From an uncultured Syntrophaceae bacterium (GTDB lineage: Bacteria; Desulfobacterota; Syntrophia; Syntrophales; PHBD01): 64,000 nucleotides of DNA. The notes under the pieces are model-generated. The model had not been told where the DNA came from. It searched no databases and was given only the letters and a program-made list of their open reading frames with translations. A program made the translations under genes and the position numbers. This document shows positions 31,055-47,327 of this stretch, one piece after another. The DNA lies in the NCBI GenBank assembly GCA_964578535.1, contig CAZODI010000002.1:12177-76176 (forward strand), read 5' to 3'. The first letter of the stretch is position 1; every line of letters begins with the position of its first letter.

Positions 31055-31083
31055 TTGCCAAGGGGCTGCCAAACCAGTATGAT
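31055..31083 (+). promoter_or_regulatory. candidate sigma70 promoter TTGCCA-N17-TATGAT for the radical-SAM lipid block
   Basis: Each hexamer matches its consensus at 5 of 6 positions, with a 17-nt spacer. It lies about 50 nt upstream of GTG 31135. Confidence 0.45.
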
Positions 31084-31134
31084 CCCGAAGCATTTCCATG
31101 GAGTGAACCAATTCGAAGAGACAGGTGCCGTTCC

Positions 31135-32484
31135 GTGAAAGTCCTGCTCGTTTCCCTCAACCGCCTGACAGCGCCCTACCCGGTATACCCTCTCGGGCTG
31201 GACTATGTGGCGGGGGCCATCCGCGACCGCCATCCGGTCCGGATCGTCGATCTGGCCGTCCCGGGGTCGCCGGAGGGGCTTGCTGATGAGATCCGAAGCA
31301 TGGCTCCGGACCTGGTCGGCCTGTCGATCCGCAACATCGACAACACGGATGCCTCCAATCCCCTGGATTTTGTCGAGGAGTACCGGGAGGTCGTCACCGG
31401 GATCCGCGCCGTTTTCTCCGGTCCCCTCGTGCTCGGGGGAAGCGGCTTCACGATTTTTCCGGAAGCGCTGATGTCCCGGCTCGGGGCCGATTACGGCATC
31501 GTCGGCGAGGGGGAGCGCCTCCGCCCGCTTCTGGATGCCCTGGAACAGGGCCGGGATCCGTCGGGACTGCCGGGCGTCGTCACGAAAGGCTGCGGTGCCC
31601 CGGCGCCGGCGCCCTGGGGCGGTTCCCCGGTCCGGCATTTTGAAGGATCCGCCCGCCACGTCGCGACCTATCTCGACCGCGGGGGGATGATGAACCTGGA
31701 GACGAAGCGGGGCTGTCCGCATCAATGCCTGTACTGCACCTATCCCCACATCGACGGCCGGATCCTCCGCCGGCGGGATCCGGAAGAGGTGGCGAGAGAG
31801 GCGCGAATGCTCCAGGAACGGGGAGCCCGCTTTCTCTTCCTGACCGACTCCACCTTCAACACGGACCTGTCCCATTCCCTGGATGTGGCCCGCGCTTTCC
31901 GGGAGGCCGGCCTGTCTGTCCCCTGGACGGCGTTCTTCGCCCCCTTCCAGGTGCCTCCGGATTACTGGCGGGAGTTGAAGGACGCGGGGCTCAGCCACGT
32001 CGAGTTCGGCACCGAGGCCCTCTCGGACCGGATGCTCGCCTCGTACCGGAAACCCTTCCGGACCGCCGATGTCTTCCAGTGCCATGAGGCGGCCGTGGAG
32101 GCCGGCCTTCACGTGGCCCATTACCTCCTCCTGGGCGGTCCCGGCGAGGATGCCGAGACCCTGGCGGAGACCCTGAACCGGGCCGAGGAACTGTGCAGGG
32201 CCGTGTTTTTCCTCTTCCCGGGAATCCGGATCTACCCCCACACGGGGCTGTATGATGCTGCCCTTCGCGAAGGGCGACTGCAGGCCTCGGACGACCTCCT
32301 GAAGCCCCGTTTTTATATCTCCGGAGCCTTCGGGGAAGGGGAACTGGAGCGGCGGGTGAGGAGCCGTGCCGCCGGAAGGGGCCACTGGGTCGTGGGGGCC
32401 GGCGGAGACGAGACGGCCTCCGTCGTCACCCGCCTCCACCGCCGTGGTTGGAAAGGACCGCTCTGGGAGCACCTGATCCCATGA
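31135..32484 (+). CDS. B12-binding domain radical SAM protein (lipid-cluster type)
   Basis: The N-terminal VKVLLVSLN...DLVGLSIRN is a B12-binding-like domain, followed by ETKRGCPHQCLYCTYP (CxxxCxxC). The GTG start is inferred from the conserved N-terminus. Confidence 0.85.
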   Translation: MKVLLVSLNRLTAPYPVYPLGLDYVAGAIRDRHPVRIVDLAVPGSPEGLADEIRSMAPDLVGLSIRNIDNTDASNPLDFVEEYREVVTGIRAVFSGPLVLGGSGFTIFPEALMSRLGADYGIVGEGERLRPLLDALEQGRDPSGLPGVVTKGCGAPAPAPWGGSPVRHFEGSARHVATYLDRGGMMNLETKRGCPHQCLYCTYPHIDGRILRRRDPEEVAREARMLQERGARFLFLTDSTFNTDLSHSLDVARAFREAGLSVPWTAFFAPFQVPPDYWRELKDAGLSHVEFGTEALSDRMLASYRKPFRTADVFQCHEAAVEAGLHVAHYLLLGGPGEDAETLAETLNRAEELCRAVFFLFPGIRIYPHTGLYDAALREGRLQASDDLLKPRFYISGAFGEGELERRVRSRAAGRGHWVVGAGGDETASVVTRLHRRGWKGPLWEHLIP

Positions 32485-33323
32485 AAAATGTGCCTTCGCC
32501 CTGGTCGCCGGCCCACCGGACGGGAGCCGCCTCGCTGCTGCTGGCGGCGGGGGCGGGGGCCGTACAGCCCTGGTGGGCCATCGTTCCCCTTGCGCTTTTT
32601 CTGCTCCTCTGCGGTGTCCTCCCGTTCTTTCCCCGGTCGTCGTTCTTTCTGCCTGTTCTAAGCACGGGAAATCCGGAGAAAAATTCCGTATCGCTCACCT
32701 TCGACGATGGGCCGGATCCCCTGGTCACCCCCCGCCTTCTGGAGATCCTGGCCGCGGCGAGTGTCCCGGCGGCCTTTTTTGTGACGGGAGAGCGGGCGGC
32801 CCGCCATCCGGAGCTGATCCGGGCGATCCTCGCGGCGGGACATGAAGTGGGGAACCATTCGTGGCATCACGATCCCCTGCTCATGCTCCGCCCGATGTCC
32901 GTCCTGCGGCGGGAAGTCGAGGGGGCCCAGCAGATCCTCATGGAGGCGGGGATCCGCCCCCGGGCGTTCCGTCCGCCCGTCGGGATCACGAACCCGAGGC
33001 TTCCCGCTGTCCTTCGCGGATCGGGAATGATCTGCGTCACCTTCAGCCGCCGGGGTGCCGACTGGGGAAACCGGCGCGTTCCGGGACTGGCGGGGCGCCT
33101 TCTGCGGCAAGTCCGGCCCGGCGATATCCTGCTTCTGCACGATATCTCGCCTCCCGGGCCCGGGGGAGCCGACCGGTGGCTGGCCGAGGTCGCCGATCTC
33201 CTCCGGGGGCTCCGGGAGCGGTCCCTGGGGATCGCTTTACTATCCGATCTGATTGAACAATCTGTCATGGAACGGACGACCCGTCCGGGGAAAAAAGGTT
33301 TTGCTCCCCCGGGGCAAGAGTGA
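32481..33323 (+). CDS. polysaccharide deacetylase (NodB/CE4) family protein with N-terminal TM segments
   Basis: The motifs LTFDDGP, GHEVGNHSWHH and RPP.G form the CE4 metal/catalytic set. The start overlaps the upstream stop in an ATGA. Confidence 0.85.
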   Translation: MKNVPSPWSPAHRTGAASLLLAAGAGAVQPWWAIVPLALFLLLCGVLPFFPRSSFFLPVLSTGNPEKNSVSLTFDDGPDPLVTPRLLEILAAASVPAAFFVTGERAARHPELIRAILAAGHEVGNHSWHHDPLLMLRPMSVLRREVEGAQQILMEAGIRPRAFRPPVGITNPRLPAVLRGSGMICVTFSRRGADWGNRRVPGLAGRLLRQVRPGDILLLHDISPPGPGGADRWLAEVADLLRGLRERSLGIALLSDLIEQSVMERTTRPGKKGFAPPGQE

Positions 33324-33426
33324 TATAGAATCACGCTTTCATCGGCTTCCCTGGACAGGGTTTGGGCAGGGAATCCGATTCATCGATCTCTTCAGGTTTC
33401 GGGACGTCCATTGCAGTTGGGGGAAC

Positions 33427-33810
33427 ATGACCGAATACTGGCAGGACCTGAAGCTGAAAGAGAAAGACGCATCCGGAAGGCTTGTTGCCGAGGCCCGGTT
33501 CGCCCCGGATTCACTCTGGTTTTCCGGTCACTTTCCCGGGCATCCCATCGTCCCGGGGGTGGCGCTGCTGTACCTGGTGGCGGAGGTTCTCCGCCGGGGC
33601 GAAGCTGGAGGAGAGCGTGTGATCGTGAAATCCATCCGGAGGGTTCGCTTCCGCCAGCCGGCTTATCCGGGTGACAACCTGACCGTCATCGTTTCCCCCG
33701 ACGAGGGGAGGACGGAGGGCGCATACCTGTTCCGCCTTCTCTCGGAGGGGGAAACGGTCTGCAGCGGATCCATCGGGACACGCCGCGACCGGGGCGGGAA
33801 CGGCTGCTGA
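33427..33810 (+). CDS. FabZ/FabA-like hotdog 3-hydroxyacyl-ACP dehydratase
   Basis: FSGHFPGHPIVPGVALLYLVAEV is the FabZ catalytic His motif. Confidence 0.75.
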   Translation: MTEYWQDLKLKEKDASGRLVAEARFAPDSLWFSGHFPGHPIVPGVALLYLVAEVLRRGEAGGERVIVKSIRRVRFRQPAYPGDNLTVIVSPDEGRTEGAYLFRLLSEGETVCSGSIGTRRDRGGNGC

Positions 33811-33839
33811 GAATACCGAATCGTCGAGGAGGAAGATTC

Positions 33840-34115
33840 ATGTCTGACGTCAAGGACATCGAACAGCATATTCTTCGCATCGCCCAGATCGTCATCGACG
33901 AGCTGAGGCTGGAGGACGTCACGAAGGAGACCTTCGATCCCGACCTGGATCTTGTGGATGAACTGGGGATCGACAGCATGGACCTGGCGACCGTAGCACT
34001 TGTCCTCCAGGACGAATACGGCGTGAGCATCGATGAGGACGATTATCCCAAGCTGAAAACCCTCCGGCTGATTGCGGAATATCTTCTGGCCAGGCTTCAG
34101 GAAAAGGCTGCCTGA
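33840..34115 (+). CDS. acyl carrier protein
   Basis: 91 aa with LGIDSMDLATVAL. Confidence 0.85.
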   Translation: MSDVKDIEQHILRIAQIVIDELRLEDVTKETFDPDLDLVDELGIDSMDLATVALVLQDEYGVSIDEDDYPKLKTLRLIAEYLLARLQEKAA

Positions 34116-34142
34116 TGCCGGCGATGGGCAACGATTCCGGTA

Positions 34143-35237
34143 ATGGAGGAGCCGTTGACGAATCGAACCGCCCCGGCGGAAAAAACAGAAGGAAAATGGA
34201 AGTTCGGCGATCTTCTTCGTGACGAGCAGGTCCGGGACCGGTGGGAGAAGGTCCGGAAGTACTTCTTCCTGCGGGAATCCACCTATGACATGACCAACCG
34301 CTGCAACATCCGGTGCGACGGCTGCTACTATTACGAGGGGGAAAAACAGTTCGCCCCGGAAAACCGGGATCCCGGCGCCTGGCGGGAACGGATGCAAAAG
34401 GAGAAGGAGCGGGGCATCACGTACGTGGTTCTGGCCGGCGCCGAACCCTCCCTGGTTCCCGAGCTTCTCGAAACCTGCTTCGAGGTCATGCCCTTAGGCA
34501 GCATTGCCACCAACGGATTCCGGCTCATCCCCTCCGCGATCGGCTACAAAATCCATATCTCCGTCTGGGGAAACGACGAGACGAGCCGGCGGGTCCGCAA
34601 CGCCGCCAACCTCCTGGAAAGGCAGCTCGACAACTACGACGGGGATCCCCGGGCGGTCTTCGTTTACACCTTCACGAGACAGAATATCCGGGAAATCGCC
34701 GAAGTGTCGGAACGGATCGCCGGCCGGAACGGAAAGCTGACCTTCAACGTCTTTTCCGCTCCCGTCGGTTACAAGGGTCCCCTCCGGCATGACCATTCCT
34801 CCCTGGAGGAAACACGCCGGGCGATGCTGGAGACCATGGCGCGCCACCCGGCATCCGTGCTGTTTTCGAATTACAGCGCCATGGCCCATACGCACGGGCT
34901 GGGGCTGCATGCCCTGTACGGCTGCTCCTATCCCCGCCGGAACGCCTCCACGGACATCGGCCTCGGGCGCTCCTTCCGGCAGTACCGGGCCGATCTGACC
35001 TGGGACCGGAGCGTCGCCTGCTGCGTTCCCGACACGGACTGCGACGACTGCCGCCACTATGCCGCCGGAAGCGCCGTGGTGACGGCCCGCCTGTTCCGGC
35101 ATGCCTCCGACCCCGATACGTTCCGCTCCTGGCTGGATTACGTGGACACGTACCTGGCGGTGTGGGTCATGGGTTACGAGAAGGGGGAGAATCTCTGCGA
35201 CCGCCTGGTGGATCCGCCGGGATTTTCCATGAAATAG
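34143..35237 (+). CDS. radical SAM protein (non-B12; paralog of 35915..36913)
   Basis: YDMTNRCNIRCDGCYY (CxxxCxxC) and LAGAEPSL are present. A C-terminal Cys cluster ACCVPDTDCDDCRHYAA is also present. Confidence 0.8.
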   Translation: MEEPLTNRTAPAEKTEGKWKFGDLLRDEQVRDRWEKVRKYFFLRESTYDMTNRCNIRCDGCYYYEGEKQFAPENRDPGAWRERMQKEKERGITYVVLAGAEPSLVPELLETCFEVMPLGSIATNGFRLIPSAIGYKIHISVWGNDETSRRVRNAANLLERQLDNYDGDPRAVFVYTFTRQNIREIAEVSERIAGRNGKLTFNVFSAPVGYKGPLRHDHSSLEETRRAMLETMARHPASVLFSNYSAMAHTHGLGLHALYGCSYPRRNASTDIGLGRSFRQYRADLTWDRSVACCVPDTDCDDCRHYAAGSAVVTARLFRHASDPDTFRSWLDYVDTYLAVWVMGYEKGENLCDRLVDPPGFSMK

Positions 35238-35276
35238 AGACCCCGGGACAACCGGGACCGAGAGAAAGGATGGACC

Positions 35277-35912
35277 ATGAAACCGAATTCCATGAAGACC
35301 TGGAAAGCCGGAGCCGCTCTTTTCGTTGCGATTCTGTTTCTCGCCGGATGCGGGGCCGCCGGGGGCGTCAAGGTCGCCGTCCAGCAGGATAAATACAACC
35401 CCGGATTCCGGGCCTCCGACGCGGGGCGGCTCAAGGGCAAGCGGATCGCCCTGGCCTCCTTCATCAACCGGGCGGACAACACGAAGACCTGGAACTTCTA
35501 CAGCCCCGACAAAAAGCGGGTCTATGAGACCTCGACGCCGCTGGAGTCGTTCTTCTGGGAGTGCTACAGCAAGGCCTTCCGGCATGCCGGCGCCCGGATC
35601 GTGGACTACCAGGGGGGCGCCTACCATGGCCCCGGGCCCTGGTGGTGGGGCGGGCCCCAGCCGGCAGGCGTTGTCGCCCCGAAGGGCGTTCCCGAAATCC
35701 AGCTGGTGCTGACCTCCGTCACGGACCAGGAGGTGCGTTTCCAGGTTTACGTCTTCCGGGACGGCGTCGAGAAATTACGGAAGGACTATGTGGCGACGAT
35801 GTCGCCGGCGGCGTCCCAGGACGTGAAGGACCTGGAGAAGCGCGCCTATGAACTGGTCGACCAGACCTTCACGACCCTGGTCCGGGATCGTGATTTTCAG
35901 AGGGCCCTGTAG
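35277..35912 (+). CDS. lipoprotein of unknown function
   Basis: Signal peptide with lipobox FLAGC. I recognise no domain. It lies between the two paralogous radical SAM genes. Confidence 0.55.
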   Translation: MKPNSMKTWKAGAALFVAILFLAGCGAAGGVKVAVQQDKYNPGFRASDAGRLKGKRIALASFINRADNTKTWNFYSPDKKRVYETSTPLESFFWECYSKAFRHAGARIVDYQGGAYHGPGPWWWGGPQPAGVVAPKGVPEIQLVLTSVTDQEVRFQVYVFRDGVEKLRKDYVATMSPAASQDVKDLEKRAYELVDQTFTTLVRDRDFQRAL

Positions 35913-35914
35913 GC

Positions 35915-36913
35915 ATGCAGACCATCAGCTCCCTCCTCGACAGCGACTGGTACGAGCGATACCGGCGGATCTCACATCTGAACATCCGGAGCTCCATTTA
36001 TGATGTGACAAACCGGTGCAACCTGCGCTGCAAGGGGTGTTTTTTCTTTTCTTCCGGGGAACACGAGGCGGCAAAGGACGAGGAAGATATCCACCGATGG
36101 GAGTCTTTCATCGACCGGGAGAAGGCCCGGGGCGTGAATATGGCCATCCTGATCGGCGGCGAGCCTACCCTCTTCCTGGACCGGGTGGAGGCTTTCTATC
36201 GGCGGCTCCCGACCTACTGTGCCACCAACGGCCTGATCCGCGTGCCCCGGGACCGCTTCCCCGGAATGCTGGTGGGAATCTCCCTCTGGGGGGACGAAGA
36301 GGACGAGAAGGCCCTCCGGGGACGGGACGTCTTCAGCGTTTCGCGCAAAAATTACGAGGGGGACAGCCACACCTATTACCTGTACACCATCACCCCGAAG
36401 CAGATCGGCCGGACGGAGAAGATCATCCGGAAGATCGCCGACGCGGGGCTGAAGGTACACATGCAGCTCCTCACCAACGACGAGCAGGTGGAGGGCTTCC
36501 ACTGGACCCCGGAGGCCCTGCGGGACGTCCGTGCGGAGATGGACGCAATGCTGGACCGGTATCCCCGGACGGTCATTTCCTGCCGGTACTATCACGAGAT
36601 CATCTGCACGGGAAGGATGATGGGCCGCCCCTTCGGATGGGGCGAGTGCCCCTCCGTGACGGAGCCCCTGGACAACCGGGATCCGAAGCCGAAACGGCTC
36701 ATCCGTTTCATCCGCTGGGCCGCGGATCTCCAGACGATGCACCGCTGCTGCACCAGCGCCACCCGGGATTGCTCCATCTGCAAGGACGGGGCCGCCCACA
36801 TGAGCTGGGTCATGGTGAACAAGCGCGAGCACCTGCGCTCGGCCGGGGATCTGAAGAACTGGATCGAGGTGTACGAGATGTTCGCCAAGCTCTACGGATT
36901 CATCCCCTGGTAA
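35915..36913 (+). CDS. radical SAM protein (non-B12; paralog of 34143..35237)
   Basis: YDVTNRCNLRCKGCFF and IGGEPTLF are present. The C-terminal RCCTSATRDCSICKDGAA aligns with its paralog. Confidence 0.8.
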   Translation: MQTISSLLDSDWYERYRRISHLNIRSSIYDVTNRCNLRCKGCFFFSSGEHEAAKDEEDIHRWESFIDREKARGVNMAILIGGEPTLFLDRVEAFYRRLPTYCATNGLIRVPRDRFPGMLVGISLWGDEEDEKALRGRDVFSVSRKNYEGDSHTYYLYTITPKQIGRTEKIIRKIADAGLKVHMQLLTNDEQVEGFHWTPEALRDVRAEMDAMLDRYPRTVISCRYYHEIICTGRMMGRPFGWGECPSVTEPLDNRDPKPKRLIRFIRWAADLQTMHRCCTSATRDCSICKDGAAHMSWVMVNKREHLRSAGDLKNWIEVYEMFAKLYGFIPW

Positions 36914-36950
36914 TGGCCCGCCGAACGCCTTTGTGAATCGTAAGGACGGA

Positions 36951-38204
36951 ATGCACCCCGATCAACAACCCGTCATTCTCGGATACGATGCCGTTTCCCC
37001 CCTGGGCGTGGAGTGGGAGGACCAGTGGCGGCGCGCCGCCGGAGGTGACAGCGGCGTCGGTCCCCTGACGCGCTTTCCCCTCCGGGAGGGGTTTCCCGTC
37101 CGGGTGGCCGGCCAGGTGGACGAGTTCGACGAAACCCCCTATCCCTTTCTGAAGCCGCGGGAGATGGCCCACTGGACGTCGCCGATTTTCCGGCATGCCC
37201 TCCTTGTGGTCCACCGGGCGCTCCGCCGGGCGGGTGTGGAGATCACCGGGGAGCTGGCGCCCCGTGTGGCGGTCACCTTCAGCACCGCCGTGGGCGGGCT
37301 CGACGCCGTCATTTCCGCCGACCGCCTCCTCGTATCGGAGGGACGGCTGCCCCATCCCTTCACGAACGCCAATTCCTGCGTCAACATGGTAGGCGGAAAG
37401 GTGTCCATCCTGACGGGGGCCACGGGTCCCATCTGCTCCCCCATCACGGCCTGTGCGACCGGATCCTCCTCCCTCATCCTGGGGGCGATGTTCCTTCGGC
37501 AGGGTATGGCCGATGCAGCGATTTGCGGGGCCGTGGATTTTTCCCTGGTCGAGCCCATCGTCGCCGGCTTCGCCACGATGAACGGGGCCTATCGCCCCAA
37601 GGAGGGCCGGCCGGAGGAGGATCCCCGCGCCGTTAGCCGTCCCTTTTCCCGGAATCGCCGGGGATTCGTCATCTCCGAGGGGGCCGGATGCTTCATCTTG
37701 GCCACAAAGGACTTCGCCCGCGCCCATGGAATTCCCTGGCGGATCGAGGTGGCCGGCTGGGGAATGACCTCCGACGCCTACCACTTCGTGGCCCCCAAAA
37801 GGGAAACGATCCGGCGCTGCATGGCCGAGGCGATCGAGCATGCCGGCATCGCGCCCGGCGACGTGGACGCCGTGAACGCCCATGCCGCCTCGACGAGGGT
37901 GGGCGACAAGGTGGAGGCCGAGGCCCTGGGGGATCTTTTCGGAGACAGGATTCCCCCGGTGTCGGCCAACAAATCCCAGATCGGCCACGCCATGGGGGCC
38001 TCCAGCGCCATCGAGGCGCTCCTGGGCATCGAGGGGATGCTCCGGGACACGCTTCTGCCGACCATCAATTACGATCCGGACCCGGAGATCGTCCTGGACT
38101 GCGTCCCCGGGGAGGCCCGCCGTGCGGAGCAGGAGTTTCTCCTGAAGAACGCCTTCGGATTCGGCGGCTGCAACGCCTGCATCGTCTTCCGGAGGTCCGG
38201 ATAG
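36951..38204 (+). CDS. beta-ketoacyl-ACP synthase II-like (FabF family)
   Basis: ACATGSSS (Cys), NAHAASTRVGD (His), GHAMGASS (His) and FGFGGCNA are present. ATG 36951 follows AAGGA; the alternative is GTG 36933. Confidence 0.9.
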   Translation: MHPDQQPVILGYDAVSPLGVEWEDQWRRAAGGDSGVGPLTRFPLREGFPVRVAGQVDEFDETPYPFLKPREMAHWTSPIFRHALLVVHRALRRAGVEITGELAPRVAVTFSTAVGGLDAVISADRLLVSEGRLPHPFTNANSCVNMVGGKVSILTGATGPICSPITACATGSSSLILGAMFLRQGMADAAICGAVDFSLVEPIVAGFATMNGAYRPKEGRPEEDPRAVSRPFSRNRRGFVISEGAGCFILATKDFARAHGIPWRIEVAGWGMTSDAYHFVAPKRETIRRCMAEAIEHAGIAPGDVDAVNAHAASTRVGDKVEAEALGDLFGDRIPPVSANKSQIGHAMGASSAIEALLGIEGMLRDTLLPTINYDPDPEIVLDCVPGEARRAEQEFLLKNAFGFGGCNACIVFRRSG

Positions 38205-38205
38205 A

Positions 38206-39471: not shown

Positions 39472-39482
39472 AGAGAAGAACG

Positions 39483-39503
39483 GCGCCGGGGCGGTCCCGG
39501 CGC
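39483..39503 (+). other. GC-rich intercistronic hairpin (8-bp stem GCGCCGGG/CCCGGCGC, 5-nt loop), no U-tract
   Basis: Read directly from the sequence. It begins 12 nt after the KS stop, inside the co-directional block. Confidence 0.3.
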
Positions 39504-39552
39504 AACCGTCGGGAGACAACGATGCGAATGATCGATCACGGAACAGCTTGAC

Positions 39553-40029
39553 ATGAAACCGAAACCCTTTCTCCCGGAAGCCCTCCCGGATGCCCGTTTC
39601 GTCCGGGACCGGACGACGGGTCAGGCCTGGCACCGCTGCTCCAACCGGACCCTGTACGCCGATACGGACCGCTCCGCCGTGGTCTACCACGCCAACTACC
39701 TCCGGTATTTCGAGATGGGCCGGGCGTCCCTGATGCGCGACGCCGCCTACCCGTACCGGGAAATCGAGGAGAGCGGCTTCGTCTATCCCATTATCGATCT
39801 CGCTGTGCAATTCTACCAGCCGCTGCGCTATGACGATCCCATGTGGATCCACACCCGGCCCGGCGAGCTGGAGCGGGTCCGCCTCCGGTTCGACTACGTC
39901 ATTACGCATGCCGAGACGGGGGTCCTGGTCTGCAGGGGCCACACCCGCCACTGTGCCCTGAACCGGTCGGGCAGGCCCGTGGCCGTGGACCCCAAGACGG
40001 TCCACCTCTGGAAGAGCTTCCCGCCATGA
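39553..40029 (+). CDS. YbgC/4HBT-type acyl-CoA/ACP thioesterase
   Basis: YADTDRSAVVYHANYLRYFEMGR is the 4HBT catalytic Asp region. 158 aa. Confidence 0.8.
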   Translation: MKPKPFLPEALPDARFVRDRTTGQAWHRCSNRTLYADTDRSAVVYHANYLRYFEMGRASLMRDAAYPYREIEESGFVYPIIDLAVQFYQPLRYDDPMWIHTRPGELERVRLRFDYVITHAETGVLVCRGHTRHCALNRSGRPVAVDPKTVHLWKSFPP

Positions 40030-40916
40030 CGGCGCGGGAAAGCGAAACCGTGAGGATTGCCGTCCCGGCCTGGCTGCGGGACCATTCCCTCGAGGGACGG
40101 ACGATCCTGCCCGCCGTGGAGATTCTGGAAATCCTCGCCGATTCCGTACAGGGCCGCTTTCCGGACACCGGCGTGCGGATCATGGAAGAGGTCCTGTTCC
40201 CCCGGTTTCTCGTCCTCGATCCAGGGGTGGCCGCCGTAGAGGTTCGGATCGAACGGCAGCCCCTCGAAGCCGGCCGCGTGAAGGCAGTCCTCGGGACGGC
40301 GGTCCGGTCCCGGTCGGGAGCCATCGGCCGGCTGGCCGTGCACGGGACGGCCGTCTTCGGAGGAGAAGCAGAGCCGGAAGCAAATCCGGAAGAGAACCCC
40401 ACCGTGTTGCGGACGGACCGGTTCACCGTTCCGGCCGGCCTGCTGTACCGGGATCTGGTCCCCTTTGGGCCGGCGTTTCGAAACGCCCGGGACCCCATCG
40501 AGATCTGGGAGGAGGGAGCCGAGGCCGTCCTGGAAGCCCCGGCGGGCGGTCATCCCCGGCTGCTGCTCGGATCCCCCTTCGTGCTGGACGCCGCCCTGCA
40601 CGTGGCCTGTGCCTGGTGCCAGCGTTACGGGGACACGGTTGCGCTCCCCGTCGGCTTCGCGAGCCGGAGGATCGTCCGGCCGGTTGCACCCGGCGAGTCC
40701 TGCCGGGTGAGGATGGATGCGAGAGGCGTTTCGGCAGGGGCGTTTTGTTTCGATCTCGTGATCCTGGACTCGGATCGCAGCCTGCGGGAGACCCTTCGGG
40801 GGGTGCGGATGCAGGATGTGAGCCGGGGGCGCCTGCGGCCGCCCGCCTGGATCCGGACCGGGCGGGACGGGGCATCCGGAGAGCCGGTGCCGGGAAGCGA
40901 AACGCCCCCCGCTTGA
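40026..40916 (+). CDS. free-standing polyketide-synthase-type dehydratase (double hotdog)
   Basis: The HxxxGxxxxP motif (HSLEGRTILP) is near the N-terminus and DxxxH (DAALH) is in the second half. The start overlaps the upstream stop in an ATGA. Confidence 0.65.
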   Translation: MTARESETVRIAVPAWLRDHSLEGRTILPAVEILEILADSVQGRFPDTGVRIMEEVLFPRFLVLDPGVAAVEVRIERQPLEAGRVKAVLGTAVRSRSGAIGRLAVHGTAVFGGEAEPEANPEENPTVLRTDRFTVPAGLLYRDLVPFGPAFRNARDPIEIWEEGAEAVLEAPAGGHPRLLLGSPFVLDAALHVACAWCQRYGDTVALPVGFASRRIVRPVAPGESCRVRMDARGVSAGAFCFDLVILDSDRSLRETLRGVRMQDVSRGRLRPPAWIRTGRDGASGEPVPGSETPPA

Positions 40917-41044
40917 CTTTTCGGGGAGGGGAACGATACAAGGGGCGGGAGGCGTGTGAAACAAACGCCGTTATCCCCTGCGGAGCGGTTCTTTCCGGCG
41001 GGCCCGGCGGATTCCGATTCCAGAAAGGTGCGTTGAACAGGAAT

Positions 41045-41344
41045 ATGACACGCGAGGCGATCGAAGCCGAAATCCGGCGGATTTTTCTTCAGGAGTTCGA
41101 GATCGAAGACCCGGCCATGGACGCGGATCTCCGGGAAGCCTACCAGTTCGACAGCATCGACGCCATCGAGCTGCTGGTGGAGATCGAGCGGTTCCTGGGC
41201 TCCGAGCTGACCATGGAGGAGAAAAAGAGGGCCATGGATATCCGCACGGTTCGCCAGATCTGCGCTTACGTGGAGGATCTCGCTCGGATCCGCCGTCCCG
41301 GCGGAGGCCGTCCCATCGGAGACTTATGCAAAGAAGGGTCGTAA
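41045..41344 (+). CDS. acyl carrier protein-like
   Basis: YQFDSIDAIELLVEIE is present. The 3' end overlaps the next KS start by 19 nt. Confidence 0.75.
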   Translation: MTREAIEAEIRRIFLQEFEIEDPAMDADLREAYQFDSIDAIELLVEIERFLGSELTMEEKKRAMDIRTVRQICAYVEDLARIRRPGGGRPIGDLCKEGS

Positions 41345-42561
41345 TCACAGCGGCATCCGCCATTACCCCGATCGGCCACGGCCGGGAGAATATCGTGCGG
41401 AGCCTCCGGCAGGGAGTCTCCGGCGTAAAGCCCCTCCGGCGGGACGATCTCCTGGCGCCCTTCATCCATTCCCAGGTCTTCGGCACCGTCGATTATCCCA
41501 TTCCCTTCGACTTCAAGCGGGTCAACCGGAAGACCATGGGCCCTGTCGGTTACTATGCCTGCCAGGTGGCAAAGGAGGTCCTGGAGGCCTCCGGCCTGGA
41601 GCAGGAATTCATCACCTCCGGCCGGCTGGGGGTGGCCTTCGGGTCCACCCACGGCAGCCCTACGGTACAGCGGGACATTTACCGGGTCTTCCACAGCGCC
41701 GACCGGGCGGGCGTCGCCTCCATCGGGGCGGTGGATTACCTGAAGTCGATGGTGCACACCACGGCGGTGAACATCACCAAGATGTTCGGCATCACCGGGC
41801 GCGTCATTGCCTCGTCGACCGCCTGCACCACCAGCAGCCAGTCCATCGGCTTCGGCTACGAGACGGTCCGGTACGGCATGCAGGACGCCATGCTCTGCGG
41901 TGGAGCCGATGAGTACGACACCACCACGGTGGCCGTCTTCGACAACCTTCTGGCCTGTTCCACCGGATTCAACGACGAGCCGCAGAGAACTCCCCGTCCT
42001 TTCGATGTCCGCCGGGACGGTCTTGTGGTCGGGGAAGGGGCGGGTGCGGTCCTCTTGGAGGAGTACGAGTCTGCACGCCGGCGGGGGGCTCCCATTCTGG
42101 CGGAAGTCGTCGGATTCGCCTGCAACAACAACGGAGGGGACCTGATCCTTCCGAATCTGGCCGGCATCCGGGAAACCCTGCGCCTGGCGCTCCGGGACGC
42201 CGGCATGACACCCGGCGAGATCGATCTCGTCAGTGCCCACGCGACGGCCACGAAGATGGGGGATATCATCGAGGCCCAGGCCATCTCCCAGGTATATGGA
42301 GACCACCCCCTCGTGACGGCCCTGAAGAGCTACATGGGGCATACCATGGCCTCCTGCGGGGTCATCGAAACGATCCTGGTCCTCTACATGATGCGGGATG
42401 GTTTCGTAGCGCCGACCCTGAACCTGGAAGAGGTGGACCCGAGGTGCGCCATGATCCGCCACGCCACATCACTCGCGGAGACCCCCGTCCGGACTGCCGC
42501 CGTCCAGAATTTTGCCTTCGGAGGGGTCAATACGGGCCTGATCCTCCGGAAGGATCCGTGA
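41326..42561 (+). CDS. beta-ketoacyl-ACP synthase (FabB/FabF family)
   Basis: RVVITAASAITPIG, STACTTSS (Cys), SAHATATKMGD (His), GHTMASCG (His) and FAFGGVN are present. Confidence 0.9.
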   Translation: MQRRVVITAASAITPIGHGRENIVRSLRQGVSGVKPLRRDDLLAPFIHSQVFGTVDYPIPFDFKRVNRKTMGPVGYYACQVAKEVLEASGLEQEFITSGRLGVAFGSTHGSPTVQRDIYRVFHSADRAGVASIGAVDYLKSMVHTTAVNITKMFGITGRVIASSTACTTSSQSIGFGYETVRYGMQDAMLCGGADEYDTTTVAVFDNLLACSTGFNDEPQRTPRPFDVRRDGLVVGEGAGAVLLEEYESARRRGAPILAEVVGFACNNNGGDLILPNLAGIRETLRLALRDAGMTPGEIDLVSAHATATKMGDIIEAQAISQVYGDHPLVTALKSYMGHTMASCGVIETILVLYMMRDGFVAPTLNLEEVDPRCAMIRHATSLAETPVRTAAVQNFAFGGVNTGLILRKDP

Positions 42562-42583
42562 TTCCGCCTCCCGGACGGTGCAG

Positions 42584-43441
42584 ATGAATCCGACGCGACC
42601 CACGATCCCCCGCCGCTCAGCATGCAGGTCGCTGATCGATCTCCCGGTGACGCTCCTCCTCTGGGTCTATTTCCTGGCGGGAACGCTGATTCTGCCGTTC
42701 TACGGTCTGTTGCGCCTGTTCTCGAACGACCGGGAGGCGTCCTTCCAGGGGATGAACAGCCGTTTCTACCGGGGATTCTTCCGGCTCGTCCAATGGCTGA
42801 TCCCCGGGCTTTCCCTCCGGATCGGAGAGGACGTCCGGGCGCTGCGCTCGGCGGTCATTGTCTCGAACCACCTGTCCTTTCTCGATCCGATCCTGCTGAT
42901 CTCCATTTTCGACCGACAGAAGACGATCGTCCGGAGCGATTTTTTCAACTATCCGATCTTCGGCTGGGTCCTGAAGACGGCGGGCTACCTCCCCTCCTCG
43001 GCAAACGGGGACCGCTTCTCGACCCTGCTGATCCAGCGAGTGGAAGACATGGACCGCTATCTTGCCACGGGAGGCAATCTCTTTATCTTTCCCGAGGGGA
43101 CGAGAAGCCGGAGCGGTCGCCGCCGGCCCTTCAGCCGGGGGGCCTTCCGCATCGCCGCCCGCTGCCGGGCGCCCCTCGGCGTGGTCCGGATCACGAATAC
43201 CCACCTGCTGTTTCCGCCGGACCGGTTTCTTTTTCGAACGGGTACCCGGGAGCCGGTGACCGTCGAGATGCTGGCGCTCCTGCGCCCCGACTGGGATGCA
43301 CCGGACTTTTCACTGAACGAGCTGATGGCCCGGGTGCAGGCCCTTTACGATGAGCGGGAGCAACGGGACGGGGAACGGGATCCGTCGCCGGCGGCCGGCC
43401 CCGGCGGAAAGCCGTCCGGAGGGGAGGCCGGGACACCGTGA
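42584..43441 (+). CDS. PlsC-like 1-acyl-sn-glycerol-3-phosphate (lysophospholipid) acyltransferase
   Basis: NHLSFLD (HX4D) and FPEGTRS motifs follow N-terminal TM helices. The start is either ATG 42584 or GTG 42578. Confidence 0.8.
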   Translation: MNPTRPTIPRRSACRSLIDLPVTLLLWVYFLAGTLILPFYGLLRLFSNDREASFQGMNSRFYRGFFRLVQWLIPGLSLRIGEDVRALRSAVIVSNHLSFLDPILLISIFDRQKTIVRSDFFNYPIFGWVLKTAGYLPSSANGDRFSTLLIQRVEDMDRYLATGGNLFIFPEGTRSRSGRRRPFSRGAFRIAARCRAPLGVVRITNTHLLFPPDRFLFRTGTREPVTVEMLALLRPDWDAPDFSLNELMARVQALYDEREQRDGERDPSPAAGPGGKPSGGEAGTP

Positions 43442-44043
43442 CGGAATGCCTGCTGGGGGCGGCCGTCGTCTATGTCGCCGCCTCGGTGAACTTCGCCATC
43501 CTCATCCTCACCGTCCTGGGGAAGGGGGATCCCCGGGGCCGCTTCAGCGGGAATGCGGGAACCACGAACGTATACCGCATGGCCGGCCCCTTCTGGGCGG
43601 CGGTGGTCCTGCTTCTGGACGTGGGACGGGCCGTGGCCGCGGCGGTCCTGGGCTCGATGCTTTTGCCTCCGAATCAGGTCCCCTGGCTGGGCCTGGCGCT
43701 GGTGGCGGGAAACCGTTTCCCCTGTTTCCACGGCTTCCGGGGCGGAAAGGGTGTGGCCGCCTACCTGGGTTTCGCGGGGGCCCTGGCCCCGTGGGCGGCG
43801 GCCCTGGCGGCGGCGCTGTGGCTGGTTGTCTTCTCGGTCGTCCGGGTGCCCTTCGTGGCCTCCTTCTACATGATCGCCGCCCTCGCGGCGGGAGAGGGAC
43901 TGGCTTCCGGGGCATCGGCAGGCGCCGCCGCAGCGGTGACGGCAACGGTCCTTTTGATTCTGGCGGGCCACTGGCGGAACATCCGGGAGATCGGGAAAGG
44001 GAAGAAGACGGGTGCCTCCGTGATCGAATCGGGGGCCGGATGA
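43438..44043 (+). CDS. plsY: PlsY-like glycerol-3-phosphate acyltransferase (acyl-phosphate dependent family), divergent
   Basis: SGNAGTTNV and FRGGKGVA motifs are present, with HWRNIREI near the C-terminus. The His of the usual GH..P motif reads GNRFP here. The GTG start overlaps the PlsC-like stop (GTGA). Confidence 0.75.
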   Translation: MTECLLGAAVVYVAASVNFAILILTVLGKGDPRGRFSGNAGTTNVYRMAGPFWAAVVLLLDVGRAVAAAVLGSMLLPPNQVPWLGLALVAGNRFPCFHGFRGGKGVAAYLGFAGALAPWAAALAAALWLVVFSVVRVPFVASFYMIAALAAGEGLASGASAGAAAAVTATVLLILAGHWRNIREIGKGKKTGASVIESGAG

Positions 44044-44056
44044 CAGGAGATGCACG

Positions 44057-44575
44057 ATGAAAAAAGGGGAAGTACCGCAGGACGATATCCGCCATTTCCG
44101 GACCGCCCGCAAGGCGGCCTATGCCGTGGACGAGGAGGGGCATTACACGACCGTTCCGACCACCGGCTGGGACGTGGAGGAGGTCATCCTGTACCAGGCC
44201 ATCGGGGAGTTCGAGGAGCAGGCGGAGGCCTGCCGGCAGCGCGTCCTCCGAGGGGAAGACTCGCCCATTGCCTTTTTCATGTACAAGCGCTGCATGGATC
44301 CCACGGTCCTGGCCCAGGCCATGGGCCTGCCGAAATGGAGGGTCAAGCGTCACCTGAAGGGGAAGGTCTTCGCCCGGATGGGGGAGGAGATGCGGAAGGA
44401 ATATGCCAGGATCCTGCGGGTTCCCCCGGACGCCCTCGCGCCGTTTCGTCCCGAGGTGCTGGAGGGGGAGACCTACGAGCTGCCCCCCGGACTCTCCACG
44501 GAGGACCGGGAGGCCGGAAGAATCCCCGGGCCCAAATCGGAAGACGGAAAAACGAATGGAAGGAGCGCTTCTTGA
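44057..44575 (+). CDS. hypothetical protein (possible HTH segment)
   Basis: 172-aa ORF translationally coupled to its neighbours. The DPTVLAQAMGLPKWRVKRHLKG stretch looks HTH-like. No family is recognised. Confidence 0.45.
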   Translation: MKKGEVPQDDIRHFRTARKAAYAVDEEGHYTTVPTTGWDVEEVILYQAIGEFEEQAEACRQRVLRGEDSPIAFFMYKRCMDPTVLAQAMGLPKWRVKRHLKGKVFARMGEEMRKEYARILRVPPDALAPFRPEVLEGETYELPPGLSTEDREAGRIPGPKSEDGKTNGRSAS

Positions 44576-45570
44576 AGCACGTCATCGATTTTGAACACCG
44601 CCATTACGGCCACTGCGAGAGCGGAGTCGTATCCGGCCTCCTCCGGCACAGCGGGCTCGACCTTTCGGAAGCTATGGTTTTCGGGCTCGCCAGCGCCATC
44701 ATGTTTGCCTACGTGCCGTTCCTCCGGATGAACAACATGCCCACCATCTCCTACCGGATTCTCCCCCGGACCATCATCAGCGGCATCCAGGGCCGCCTGG
44801 GCATCCCCTTCCGGAAACAGACCTACCGGGACCCACGCCGGGCGATGGATGAACTGGTCGATTTCATGCGGAAGGGGCAGATCGTGGGGCTCCAGACATC
44901 GGCGTACTGGCTGACGTACTTTCCGCCCGAGATGCGGTTCCAGTTCAACGTCCACAACCTGATCGTGTTCGGGGTGGAGGACGGCGAGTTCCTGGTGAGC
45001 GATCCCGTCTTCGAGCATCCCGTCCGCATCCAGGCGGCTGACCTGGAGAACGCCCGTTTCGCCAAGGGCGTCATGGCCCCGAGGGGCTTCGTCTATCACC
45101 CCGAAGGGGTCCCGGCCTCGGTGGACCTGCCGGTGCTGATCCGGAAGGCCGTCGCCCGGACCCTCTTCATGATGCTCTCCTCGCCCCCTCCCTTCGGGAT
45201 CCGCGGGATCTTCTACCTGGCCCGGAAGATCGAGCGGCTGGACCGAAGCAGGGATGGCCGCTACATCCGCCTCTTCCTGGGACATATGATCCGGATGCAG
45301 GAGGAGATCGGCACGGGCGGAGGCGGGTTTCGCTTCATGTATGCCGCGTTTCTCCAGGAGGCGTCGGAGATCCTGCATTCGGCCGCCTTGCAGGAGGCGT
45401 CTGGGAAAATGACCCGGGCGGGGGACCAGTGGCGGACCTTTGCGCTGGCATGCGCCAGGATCATCCGGCAGCGCGACGGCGCTCCGGACCTGAAGGAGAT
45501 CGCCGCGCTGCTCCGTCGGTGCGGCGAGATGGAGCGGGACGTGTACGTCCTGCTGAAAAAGGGGATCTGA
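44572..45570 (+). CDS. BtrH-N/DUF4872-like protein (papain-fold ACP-dependent acyltransferase-like)
   Basis: FEHRHYGHCESGVVSGLLRHSGLDLSEAMVFGLASAIMFAY matches my memory of the BtrH N-terminal domain signature (GxHCE...LL...SEAMVFG). The TTG start follows GGAAGGAG and overlaps the upstream stop (TTGA). Confidence 0.6.
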   Translation: MKHVIDFEHRHYGHCESGVVSGLLRHSGLDLSEAMVFGLASAIMFAYVPFLRMNNMPTISYRILPRTIISGIQGRLGIPFRKQTYRDPRRAMDELVDFMRKGQIVGLQTSAYWLTYFPPEMRFQFNVHNLIVFGVEDGEFLVSDPVFEHPVRIQAADLENARFAKGVMAPRGFVYHPEGVPASVDLPVLIRKAVARTLFMMLSSPPPFGIRGIFYLARKIERLDRSRDGRYIRLFLGHMIRMQEEIGTGGGGFRFMYAAFLQEASEILHSAALQEASGKMTRAGDQWRTFALACARIIRQRDGAPDLKEIAALLRRCGEMERDVYVLLKKGI

Positions 45571-45593
45571 GGTCTCCGCGGGGGAGGTTGTCG

Positions 45594-47021
45594 ATGCGTG
45601 TCGCCCTGGTCCAGCCGGCCGGGTCCAACTGGGTCCGGGGCCGCCGGGACATGGCCGCCGTGGCCAACCGGATGGCTCCGCTCGGTCTCCTGTCCATCGC
45701 CGCGTGGCTCGAGCGCGAGGGGCATGAGGTGTCGGTCCTGGACTGCCTGGGACCCGGCGCCGCGCCCGGTGCGGAGGCGGTCGTCCGGGACCTGCTCGAA
45801 TTCCGTCCCGACCTGGTGGGATTCTCTACCACCACGTCCAGTTTTCTTGACGGCCATGCCCTGGCGGTCCGCCTGAAGGAGGCCGACCCGGGGATCCGGA
45901 CCGTCTTCGGCGGCGTCCATGTTTCGGCCGTCGGCGAGCCGCTCCTGGAGCGGTATGCGGCCATTGATTATCTCTGCCCCGGGGAGGGGGAGGTCACGCT
46001 GGCGGCGCTGGCCGGCGGCGGGGATCCGCGGGAAATCGACGGCCTCATTTGGCGCGACGGGGAGCGCATCGCCGCCAACCGGGCCCGGCCGACCCTGCCC
46101 GACCTGGATCGCCTTCCCTTTCCGGCGTATCACCTGCTCCGGGGGTTCCCGCGGGGCTACAACCTTCCGCTGTTCAGCTACATCCGGACGCCGGGAGCCA
46201 CCATGGTGACGAGCCGAGGCTGCCCGTACCGCTGCAGCTACTGCGACCGATCCGTCTTCCGGCAGTCCTATCGCATGAATTCCCCGGAATACATCTACGA
46301 GCACCTGAGCCACCTGCGACGGCATTTCGGGGTGCGCCATGTCAACATTTATGACGATCTGTTCACGGCCCACCGCCCGCGGATCGCCGAGCTATGCCGT
46401 CTTCTCAGCTCCCGGCCCCTGGGGATCCAGTTCAACTGCGCTGTCCGGGCGGGCCACACGGATCGCGAGCTCCTTCGCATGCTCAGGGAAGCGGGCTGCC
46501 TGATGGTTTCCGTGGGCATCGAATCGGGGGAGCCGGAGCTCCTGGCCCGGCACAAGGCCGGGGTGACCCTGGAGGAGCTGCGGGAGACGGTGGCGCTGAT
46601 CCGGGAGAGCGGGCTCCGGGCGAAGGGGCTGTTCATGATGGGGCTGCCCGGAGAAACGGAGGAGTCGATCCGGAAGACCAGCGACTTCTGCCTGTCGCTG
46701 GAGCTGGACGACATGAACATGGCCAAGTTTACCCCGTTCCCGGGAGCGCCCGTCTGGGGGAACATCCGGGAGGAGGGAACCTTCGAGGAGGACTGGCCGT
46801 TGATGAACTGCCTGAACTTCGTCTTCGTTCCCCGGGGTATTGCTTCGCGTGACCGCCTCGACGAGCTGTACAACCGGCACGTAAAACGGTTCTACACCGA
46901 CCCGGGCTGGCGGCGCCGCCTGATCCGCCGGACCTGGCAGCACCGCTGGAGCCTCTGGTACCTGTTTTCCCACTTGCCCCAGTTCTGGACGGCGAAAAAC
47001 TCGTTCCAGCCGAAGGGGTGA
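45594..47021 (+). CDS. B12-binding domain radical SAM protein (class B)
   Basis: MRVALVQPA...DLVGFSTTTSS is a B12-binding-like N-terminus, followed by TSRGCPYRCSYCDR (CxxxCxxC). GGGGGAGG SD lies upstream. Confidence 0.85.
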   Translation: MRVALVQPAGSNWVRGRRDMAAVANRMAPLGLLSIAAWLEREGHEVSVLDCLGPGAAPGAEAVVRDLLEFRPDLVGFSTTTSSFLDGHALAVRLKEADPGIRTVFGGVHVSAVGEPLLERYAAIDYLCPGEGEVTLAALAGGGDPREIDGLIWRDGERIAANRARPTLPDLDRLPFPAYHLLRGFPRGYNLPLFSYIRTPGATMVTSRGCPYRCSYCDRSVFRQSYRMNSPEYIYEHLSHLRRHFGVRHVNIYDDLFTAHRPRIAELCRLLSSRPLGIQFNCAVRAGHTDRELLRMLREAGCLMVSVGIESGEPELLARHKAGVTLEELRETVALIRESGLRAKGLFMMGLPGETEESIRKTSDFCLSLELDDMNMAKFTPFPGAPVWGNIREEGTFEEDWPLMNCLNFVFVPRGIASRDRLDELYNRHVKRFYTDPGWRRRLIRRTWQHRWSLWYLFSHLPQFWTAKNSFQPKG

Positions 47022-47069
47022 CCGGTCCTGAAAGCCCGGGATGAACCGGGACACCCCTGCTCCGGGATT

Positions 47070-47327
47070 CTATTTCGTCCGGTGGTTGAGGATGTAGTCC
47101 GCCAGCGCGTTGAGAGAGGCGAACACCTTCACCCCCAGCTCCTTGTTGTCGATCTTGACCCCGTATTCCTTCTCGATCATCATCACCAGCTCGAGCACGT
47201 CGATGGAGTCCAGGCCCAGGTCTCCACCGACCAGCGCCCCCTTCTCGTCGATATCCTCCGGGGCCACGTCCAGCAGGCCCAGCGTGGAAATAATTTTCTC
47301 TTTCAATTCCTGCTTCAGGTTGTCCAT
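47070..47327 (-). CDS. acyl carrier protein
   Basis: 85 aa with LGLDSIDVLELVMMIE. Confidence 0.85.
   Translation of the reverse strand: MDNLKQELKEKIISTLGLLDVAPEDIDEKGALVGGDLGLDSIDVLELVMMIEKEYGVKIDNKELGVKVFASLNALADYILNHRTK

Follow-up and report, generated by a model that had tools for sequence, protein, structure and literature searches.

What does a closely packed block of radical S-adenosylmethionine (SAM) and fatty-acid-synthesis-like genes make in an uncultured Syntrophaceae bacterium, and does the pathway end where the block ends? The block lies at 31055-47327 of a 64-kb stretch of contig CAZODI010000002.1 (G+C ~65%), the whole of which is the window analysed here. An earlier note on this DNA had seen in it an undescribed, self-contained pathway in which an acyl chain is built on private acyl carrier proteins (ACPs), remodelled by radical chemistry and installed on glycerol phosphate. 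We found that the block adds a new member, extended by lineage-specific genes, to a cluster family that is already described but uncharacterised. We lean, with moderate confidence, towards reading it as the core of an anaerobe-specific lipid pathway like those of type II fatty acid synthases and polyketide synthases (FAS/PKS), belonging to the superfamily of aryl-polyene (APE), flexirubin and 'ladderane-type' clusters, in which an ACP-bound chain would be tailored by radical SAM enzymes and built into a glycerolipid. The domain content of the block and its conserved synteny, on which this proposal is founded, are direct observations.

The genes of the window were obtained by listing and translating its open reading frames (ORFs), followed by Pfam and NCBIfam profile scans with curated cutoffs. 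Both libraries agree with the domains and the gene order named before, including the convergent ACP gene at 47070-47327 on the minus strand; the co-directional genes, counted earlier as about seventeen, do run in one direction and number 18 (31135-47021, plus strand). The near-consensus promoter that had been described is present, position 31055 being its -35 hexamer, and gene callers put the first gene start at 31135; two promoter-like sites are observed near 31055-31083 vs 0.2 expected. The four start/stop overlaps are also there (ATGA at 32481 and 40026, GTGA at 43438, TTGA at 44572). Neither library found a ketoreductase (KR), enoyl reductase or malonyl transferase within 31055-47327, so that the claimed absence holds inside the block; it does not extend to the neighbouring divergent operon, which has a FabG/FlxB-like KR at 22338-23060. 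The window proteins were also compared by tblastn with 48 related loci of at least 15 kb, taken with flanks of 10 kb, and the gene counts per 48 loci are lower bounds, as several loci are cut short. With KS for ketosynthase and DH for dehydratase, the features of the block and its 3' neighbours are the following.

31055-31083, plus strand: sigma-70-like promoter TTGCCA-17-TATGAT, 10/12 matches, ahead of the 18-gene operon
31135-32484, plus strand: B12rSAM1, B12-binding radical SAM protein with B12-binding and Radical_SAM domains, TIGR04072; 40/48 loci
32481-33323, plus strand: CE4 polysaccharide-deacetylase-family protein with an N-terminal hydrophobic segment, PF01522 at 102.6 bits; 35/48 loci
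33427-33810, plus strand: FabZ/FabA/ApeI-like single-hotdog DH by Pfam; 45/48 loci
33840-34115, plus strand: ACP1, acyl carrier protein by Pfam/NCBIfam, motif DSMD; 47/48 loci
34143-35237, plus strand: rSAM_A, radical SAM protein of no curated family; 48/48 loci at 67-96% identity
35277-35912, plus strand: lipoprotein with lipobox LFLAGC, no family match; 2/48 loci
35915-36913, plus strand: rSAM_B, radical SAM paralog of rSAM_A; 48/48 loci at 68-92% identity
36951-38204, plus strand: KS1, FabF-like; 47/48 loci
38206-39471, plus strand: KS2, FabF-like; 46/48 loci
39553-40029, plus strand: YbgC/4HBT-type thioesterase, TIGR00051 at 80.9 bits vs cutoff 68.7; 45/48 loci at 65-91% identity
40026-40916, plus strand: PS-DH, PKS-type double-hotdog DH by Pfam; 42/48 loci
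41045-41344, plus strand: ACP2, acyl carrier protein by Pfam/NCBIfam; 16/48 loci
41326-42561, plus strand: KS3, best NCBIfam match PRK09116 at 394 bits vs cutoff 470; 18/48 loci
42578-43441, plus strand: PlsC/LPLAT-family acyltransferase, PF01553; 15/48 loci
43438-44043, plus strand: divergent PlsY-family acyltransferase, PF02660 at 106 bits and TIGR00023 at 77.9 bits vs cutoff 137; 30/48 loci
44057-44575, plus strand: DarG-family protein of 172 aa, NF053536 at 140 bits vs cutoff 70; 2/48 loci
44572-45570, plus strand: DarH, BtrH-related acyltransferase with BtrH_N and DUF4872, NF053550 at 438 bits vs cutoff 300; 1/48 loci
45594-47021, plus strand: B12rSAM2, second B12-binding radical SAM protein, HpnJ/BchE-like and below the cutoffs of both; 15/48 loci
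47070-47327, minus strand: ACP3, acyl carrier protein, NCBIfam PRK09184 at 75.5 bits vs cutoff 70; 38/48 loci
47367-47825, minus strand: small hydrophobic, probably membrane, protein partnering ACP3, no family; 26/48 loci

Do these genes belong together? A scan of species-representative genomes with rSAM_A gave at least 524 tblastn-confirmed stretches, of which the best 80 were listed. The carriers among these 80 are Syntrophales/Smithella, Desulfobacterales, Spirochaetota and one Planctomycetota metagenome-assembled genome (MAG); the closest among the matches listed are a Syntrophaceae MAG (96%) and HGW-Deltaproteobacteria-19 (92%). The core order ACP3, B12-rSAM, CE4, FabZ-like DH, ACP1, rSAM_A, rSAM_B, KS1, KS2, thioesterase, PS-DH and PlsY-like is fixed in 48/48 loci, and because the same order recurs in 48 independent loci the gene block is not a product of chance. 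The expected co-occurrence of both radical SAM paralogs with KS, ACP and PlsY genes is borne out by the counts (rSAM_A and rSAM_B 48/48, ACP1 47, KS1 47, KS2 46, thioesterase 45, PlsY-like 30). For the PlsC-like gene it holds in part, the ACP2-KS3-PlsC module being optional, located before the PlsY-like gene and found in only 15-18 of the 48 loci. In the 47 loci having ACP1, this gene always stands just upstream of rSAM_A. Other genes recur as extras, namely the small membrane protein before ACP3 and sometimes a further ketosynthase, KS0, between ACP3 and B12-rSAM. Identity across phyla amounts to 61-81% for the radical SAM pair, KS1, KS2, the thioesterase and ACP1, and to only 28-44% for both dehydratases.

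The window departs from its relatives in some details. ACP3 normally heads the operon in the direction of the cassette; here it lies, together with its membrane-protein partner, at the 3' end in inverted orientation. Judging from this position, a local rearrangement would have moved the two genes, as the inversion indicates. The 15 matches of B12rSAM2 comprise ten at 65-72% identity and five at 24-28%, the latter being likely other B12-rSAM paralogs. The lipoprotein gene, which has no family match and splits rSAM_A from rSAM_B, is lineage-specific, only two of the 48 loci having it. Beyond ACP3 and its partner there is an ORF of 724 aa (47788-49962, minus strand) with neither a Pfam/NCBIfam family nor a homolog in any of the 48 loci.

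The most constant genes of the cassette are the two radical SAM paralogs that lack a B12 domain. rSAM_A carries the CxxxCxxC motif plus a conserved C-terminal CCxPxxDCxxCR, and it is 25-26% identical to rSAM_B. Of its database relatives (n=2053), none of the best 120 falls below 68% identity, and clustering at 50% reduces the family to essentially a single full-length cluster, with distant relatives at 30-42% identity beside it. Radical SAM enzymes in a lipid pathway are a feature shared with Tes, the bacterial membrane-spanning lipid synthase, GrsA/B and Jaw5, whereas rSAM_A and rSAM_B form their own tight family: with the Tes family NF045702 they reach only 21.9 and 27.5 bits vs a cutoff of 450, through the N-terminal radical SAM core alone. 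One homolog of rSAM_A at 42% identity, P0128 (locus L089, 10001-11255), is translationally coupled to an ACP gene, and its surroundings are a glycosyltransferase/sulfotransferase (capsule-like) cluster, not FAS-like. This coupling hints that the wider rSAM_A family may act on ACP-bound substrates.

Is the architecture undescribed, as had been thought? Several lines speak otherwise. B12rSAM1 passes the TIGR04072 model 'rSAM_ladder_B12' with 391.8 bits vs a cutoff of 360, over model positions 1-442/443 (ORF 30937-32484). In the gene list published for Kuenenia kuste3335-3352 there are a glycosyltransferase, phytoene desaturase, SAM methylases, FabZ, FabG and two ACPs, a pair of neighbouring SAM radical enzymes, a phenylacetyl-CoA ligase, FabF paralogs of which one is non-canonical, and proteins resembling a deacetylase and a lipoprotein. 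Rattray et al. (2009) described a striking synteny between Kuenenia and the DP1853/DP1855 region of Desulfotalea psychrophila, with clusters of a similar kind in Geobacter and Pelobacter, and antiSMASH 'ladderane' clusters of unknown function have been reported in Desulfobacterota and other phyla. By described functions, the window is a close match to the Kuenenia list, and it shares with the kuste3335-3352 and Desulfotalea loci two adjacent non-B12 radical SAM enzymes, dedicated ACPs, FabZ, FabG and several FabF paralogs, together with deacetylase-like, lipoprotein, acyl-CoA-ligase-like, glycosyltransferase, methyltransferase and membrane/transport proteins. The window and the 48 loci alike have a pair of neighbouring non-B12 radical SAM genes next to a dedicated ACP, FabZ and FabF paralogs. 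Unlike those loci, the window adds the PlsY-like and PlsC-like genes, DarG/DarH, an ammonia-lyase and a FakA-DegV fusion. What does stand from the claim of novelty is the product, since no assigned one was found in the literature on these clusters, and reviews up to 2026 describe the radical SAM chemistry of ladderane-type clusters as unresolved.

These parallels raise the possibility that the block makes ladderanes, the concatenated cyclobutane lipids, as proposed for anammox bacteria. Both the TIGR04072 match of B12rSAM1 and the functional inventory of kuste3335-3352 would favour it. However, the carriers among the best 80 of at least 524 stretches are Syntrophales, Desulfobacterales and Spirochaetota, not anammox bacteria, and in Desulfotalea, which has a similar cluster, ladderanes were not detected (Rattray et al.). 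A second anammox comparison is given by Cluster I, kuste3603-3608, which encodes amxACP, amxFabZ, the pair amxFabF2/amxFabFmut, a phytoene-desaturase-like enzyme and a B12-rSAM. Like it, the window unites in a single operon an ACP, a FabZ-like DH, a pair of FabF-like KS and a B12 radical SAM gene. In the anammox KS pair the catalytic triad of one partner is mutated, whereas KS1 and KS2 both keep Cys-His-His. The window also differs by its two additional central non-B12 radical SAM genes, and a phytoene-desaturase-like flavin amine oxidase was not found among the window ORFs scanned. The conservation of the triad claimed for all three KS could be read in the translations: ACATGSS / NAHAAST / GHAMGAS in KS1, ACASGNH / NAHGTST / GHTLGAA in KS2 and ACTTSSQ / SAHATAT / GHTMASC in KS3.

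We compared KS1, KS2 and the FabZ-like DH with solved canonical and anammox structures. The nearest solved structures of KS1 and KS2 are canonical FabF (E-values 1e-77 and 1e-85); structure 9s5h, which we take to be the anammox FabF heterodimer, gives 1e-45 and 1e-60. Among solved structures, the FabZ-like DH (33427-33810) is best matched by 3esi and 6qsr, ahead of the other FabZ-type dehydratases, and the protein matches the Pfam ApeI-like family below cutoff. Orthology with anammox Cluster I was rejected, as the three proteins match canonical FabF or ApeI-like structures better, and no link to an AmxMT1-like methyltransferase was found. Taking both sides together, ladderane biosynthesis by this block appears highly improbable. 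One relative, L005, has at 1670-9134 a phytoene-desaturase-like amine oxidase, a fusion of CE4 with a methyltransferase and one more radical SAM gene, of the B12/DUF4070 type, and for these genes it stands nearer to the published Kuenenia list.

Where, then, does the locus end? The limits 31055-47327 had been drawn too tightly: the 18-gene block is embedded in an aryl-polyene/flexirubin-like locus of ~33 kb, with KS0, ACP0 and B12rSAM0 upstream. On the minus strand, nine tightly packed genes form an operon that extends from 23530 down to 15000, and a plus-strand operon (23766-29655) diverges from it. The features of this region, together with a pair of genes further away, are as follows.

23063-23530, minus strand: FabZ-like DH, first gene of the divergent operon; 12/48 loci
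22338-23060, minus strand: FabG/FlxB-like KR, FabG 301 bits vs cutoff 273 and FlxB 303 vs 340
21599-22318, minus strand: LolA-like carrier, LolA2_flexi at 81.6 bits, below cutoff 125; 9/48 loci
20889-21602, minus strand: DUF3261 protein, ApeN (LolB-like) family of aryl-polyene clusters, 22.6 bits vs cutoff 22.3; role taken from the APE literature
19562-20854, minus strand: B12rSAM0, third B12-type radical SAM protein; 13/48 loci, mostly at 70-75% identity
17946-19499, minus strand: MIO-type aromatic amino-acid ammonia-lyase with motif ASGDL, PF00221 at 494.7 bits; HAL, TAL and FlxA models below cutoff
17501-17920, minus strand: second 4HBT thioesterase, by profile scan
15762-17492, minus strand: FakA-DegV fatty-acid-kinase fusion, FakA N-terminal and middle domains joined to a full DegV/FakB domain
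15000-15740, minus strand: family-2 glycosyltransferase (GT2), by profile scan
23766-25112, plus strand: adenylate-forming ligase, best match 4-coumarate-CoA ligase, below cutoff
25099-27257, plus strand: ATPase and permease of an ATP-binding cassette (ABC) transporter, by profile scan
27310-27580, plus strand: ACP0, weak ACP-like ORF with motif LDSID, PP-binding at 17.9 bits, below cutoff; a gene is called there in L001
27614-28777, plus strand: KS0, ketosynthase with Cys-His-His, best NCBIfam match PRK09185 (below cutoff); 25/48 loci
28774-29655, plus strand: 293-aa ORF coupled to KS0, no family; possible degenerate KS partner
7729-11016, minus strand: MMPL transporter of the resistance-nodulation-division (RND) type, fused to a C-terminal methyltransferase, by profile scan
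6818-7882, minus strand: LpxL-like acyltransferase, by profile scan

The accessories of the window include genes for starter and chain chemistry (aromatic ammonia-lyase, adenylating ligase, KR, extra DH), for lipid assembly (GT2, DarG/DarH, FakA-DegV) and for export (LolA-like, DUF3261, ABC, MMPL). A block of ClpA, ClpS and Leu-Phe-transferase genes (11495-15177) stands between the MMPL-methyltransferase/LpxL-like pair and the rest of the lipid locus. On the other side, an ArsM-type arsenite methyltransferase gene (29725-30561) and an AbrB/MazE-like gene, together at 29725-30952 on the minus strand, part the KS0 operon from the 18-gene block. A perfect sigma-70 consensus, TTGACA-16-TATAAT (31028-31001, minus strand), lies back to back with the promoter of the 18-gene operon and faces these two genes. 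The methyltransferase was rejected as a lipid gene for its ArsM type and its pairing with the AbrB/MazE-like gene; the pair looks like an insertion unrelated to the lipid genes, since it is conserved only in the closest relative, L008. The genes downstream of 50 kb are housekeeping, and among them a PilB-type pilus ATPase (53643-55940) bears an N-terminal extension of ~180 residues with a weak match to the N-terminal region of the phosphoenolpyruvate-protein phosphotransferase model.

The closest working model for the block comes from the aryl-polyene literature. The aryl-polyene-lipid (APEL) cluster apeA-R of Xenorhabdus doucetiae and E. coli CFT073 makes a glycerophospholipid with a cluster-made conjugated fatty acid. 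In APE clusters, a second ACP carries the conjugated fatty acid, a cluster acyltransferase is proposed to place it on the glycerol backbone, and LolA-like, DUF3261 and RND proteins are proposed for export. Acylation of glycerophosphate by the cluster, which had been proposed for the block, is in this sense a role already proposed for that family. The window resembles apeA-R in its several KS, at least two ACPs, hotdog dehydratases, KR, 4HBT thioesterase and adenylating enzyme, and also in having a glycerolipid acyltransferase, a glycosyltransferase, LolA-like and DUF3261 proteins and an RND/MMPL exporter. Of the APE core set of Grammbitter et al. (KS, ACP, chain-length factor, DH, KR and transporter), the window has KS, ACP, DH, KR and an RND/MMPL transporter, the last ~20 kb away. 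The two differ in that radical SAM genes, a PlsY-like gene and a Fak fusion do not figure in the description of apeA-R, the hosts of window-type loci are strict anaerobes, the NCBIfam matches of the window KS, KR, LolA, lyase and ligase are mostly below cutoff, and the window has no clear chain-length factor. The KS models PRK09116 and PRK09185 are presumably APE-type.

A relationship to flexirubin pigments was also considered. The flexirubin clusters (flx/dar) of Chitinophaga pinensis and Flavobacterium johnsoniae contain a tyrosine ammonia-lyase, CoA ligase, deacetylase, glycerol acyltransferase, LolA, glycosyltransferase and exporter, a gene set that overlaps that of the window. The ORF at 44057-44575, regarded as hypothetical before, proved to be of the DarG family (140 bits vs cutoff 70) and the adjoining BtrH-like protein is DarH, both above their NCBIfam cutoffs; an aromatic ammonia-lyase, a coumarate-ligase-like enzyme, a FlxB-like KR and a LolA2-like protein are present as well. 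A genuine flexirubin pathway would esterify an aryl-polyene acid to a dialkylresorcinol, and the scanned ORFs of the 64-kb window yielded no resorcinol-forming DarA/DarB. Moreover, FlxA (276.8 bits vs 700 for the window lyase), FlxB and LolA2 models all remain below cutoff, no more than 1-2 of the 48 related loci carry DarG/DarH, and radical SAM genes and PlsY are absent from the published flexirubin description. We regard a flexirubin pigment as an improbable product of this locus.

A more serious alternative is that the cassette works as a stand-alone membrane-tail pathway, converting intermediates of the type II FAS into a methyl-branched, cyclised or coupled acid that enters bulk phospholipid via its own PlsY and PlsC, the APE-like flank being a separate cluster. 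The minimal Smithella-type loci L006 and L084 would fit it: a true FabA-domain gene precedes the cassette, unrelated genes flank it, and no ligase, lyase, LolA or exporter lies within 10 kb. The proximity of KS1 and KS2 to canonical FabF, the PlsY-like gene that closes the cassette in 30 of the 48 loci, and the ArsM/AbrB insertion with its divergent promoters, which cuts the block off from the upstream plus-strand genes, point in the same direction. Yet KR orthologs (59-71% identity) occur in the upstream divergent operon of 17 loci, many of them with LolA-like, DUF3261, FabZ-like and B12-rSAM genes alongside, and this operon directly precedes the cassette. A ligase homolog adjoins the PlsY-like gene in three loci (L046, L054, L078), and a FakA-DegV homolog (49% identity) lies beside the cassette in L086. 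In L015 (21-2516), an edge-cut methyltransferase-domain ORF and an LpxL-like acyltransferase gene stand directly upstream of the cassette, resembling the MMPL-methyltransferase/LpxL-like pair of the window. Within the block, the FabZ-like DH matches ApeI-like (below cutoff), ACP3 passes PRK09184, and DarG/DarH and CE4 are components of flexirubin clusters. There is also no enoyl reductase, so a saturated chain is not the obvious product. On balance, we consider a stand-alone tail pathway unlikely. The logic proposed earlier, from private ACPs through radical tailoring to glycerol phosphate, gains synteny support from the co-occurrence in 48 loci; its stand-alone boundaries do not.

Several observations count against an aryl-polyene-like glycerolipid pathway and temper our confidence in it. 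Most APE/flexirubin-type matches are below their curated cutoffs (FlxA, FlxB, LolA2, PRK09116, PRK09185, coumarate ligase). No clear gene for a chain-length factor was identified in the window; the 293-aa ORF coupled to KS0, with no family match and no significant BLASTP similarity to KS0, is a candidate only. The ammonia-lyase lies 14.7 kb from rSAM_A, outside the 10-kb flanks of the compared loci, and given the minimal Smithella loci without such genes within 10 kb, the aryl starter and export parts may be add-ons of the window's lineage. The best 80 of at least 524 carriers are all MAGs, at 67% identity or more. The AlphaFold model of rSAM_A has a mean pLDDT of 71 with a disordered, low-confidence Cys-rich tail, and its Foldseek search against the PDB returned only generic twitch/SPASM-type cores (SkfB, SuiB, BlsE, DesII, MoaA) with a TM-score of at most 0.46. 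No function could be assigned to rSAM_A from its predicted structure.

The PlsY-like protein adds to this side of the balance. It belongs to PlsY at the Pfam level and misses the cutoff of the PlsY equivalog TIGR00023 (77.9 vs 137 bits). We surveyed its motif in 34 cassette-linked copies aligning over it (loci L005-L086), and in nearly all of them the canonical GHxxP of PlsY reads GN(R/S)FPCFH; the conserved PlsY His is replaced by Asn in 33 of the 34 and by Thr in the remaining one. By this signature, the cassette-linked proteins are a predicted subfamily distinct from canonical PlsY, and given the score below cutoff and the lost His, the enzyme may use other substrates.

How would this enzyme be supplied? 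The acyl donor of PlsY is acyl-phosphate, the product of PlsX or of FakA/FakB. In the 64-kb window PlsX was not seen, but two thioesterases and the Fak fusion are found. Like the PlsX/PlsY/PlsC and FakA/FakB pathways, the window has PlsY- and PlsC-family acyltransferases and a FakA-DegV kinase; unlike them, it has FakA and FakB fused and Asn for His in its PlsY-like protein. By its predicted function, the FakA-DegV kinase could supply the acyl-phosphate.

Under the aryl-polyene-like glycerolipid reading, a putative route may be drawn. The cluster KS enzymes would elongate acyl chains on the dedicated ACPs, and reduction by the cluster KR or by housekeeping FabG, followed by dehydration and no enoyl reduction, would yield unsaturated or polyene chains. 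In this genome, the lyase and the ligase may provide an aryl acid as the starter of one chain. The rSAM_A/rSAM_B pair would tailor an intermediate bound to ACP1, and the B12-rSAMs would also tailor the chain, most plausibly by methylating or coupling unactivated carbons. The thioesterase would then release the acid, FakA-DegV would turn the freed acid into acyl-phosphate, the PlsY-like enzyme would transfer the chain to glycerol-3-phosphate, and the PlsC-like enzyme would add a second chain from ACP2. DarH/DarG, GT2 and CE4 might decorate the head group, and the LolA-like, DUF3261 and MMPL/ABC components might carry the lipid to the outer membrane.

Since 2009, 'ladderane-type' clusters have been noted in anaerobes other than anammox bacteria, and genome-mining surveys report them routinely. 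Our analysis separates an invariant core, made of two non-B12 radical SAM genes amid ACP, KS, DH and thioesterase genes with a signature PlsY subfamily, from variable accessories such as the aryl starter, DarG/DarH and the exporters, and ties this core to the logic of aryl-polyene lipids. More tentatively, we suggest as a possibility that the 12-14-gene cassette makes an undescribed class of lipids: radical SAM enzymes would tailor an unsaturated or polyene chain, for instance by C-methylation, cyclisation or cross-linking on ACP1, and the distinct PlsY subfamily would build it into a glycerolipid. If so, rSAM_A and rSAM_B would found a new family of lipid-modifying radical SAM enzymes with ACP-bound substrates, and tractable non-anammox carriers would open an experimental route to a chemistry long proposed for ladderane-type clusters. 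According to a 2026 review, radical-SAM modification of ketoacyl lipids has so far been proposed only for ladderanes and jawsamycin. A solved product would add another such modification, and it could throw light on ladderane biosynthesis and serve as a lipid biomarker of syntrophic and sulfate-reducing bacteria.

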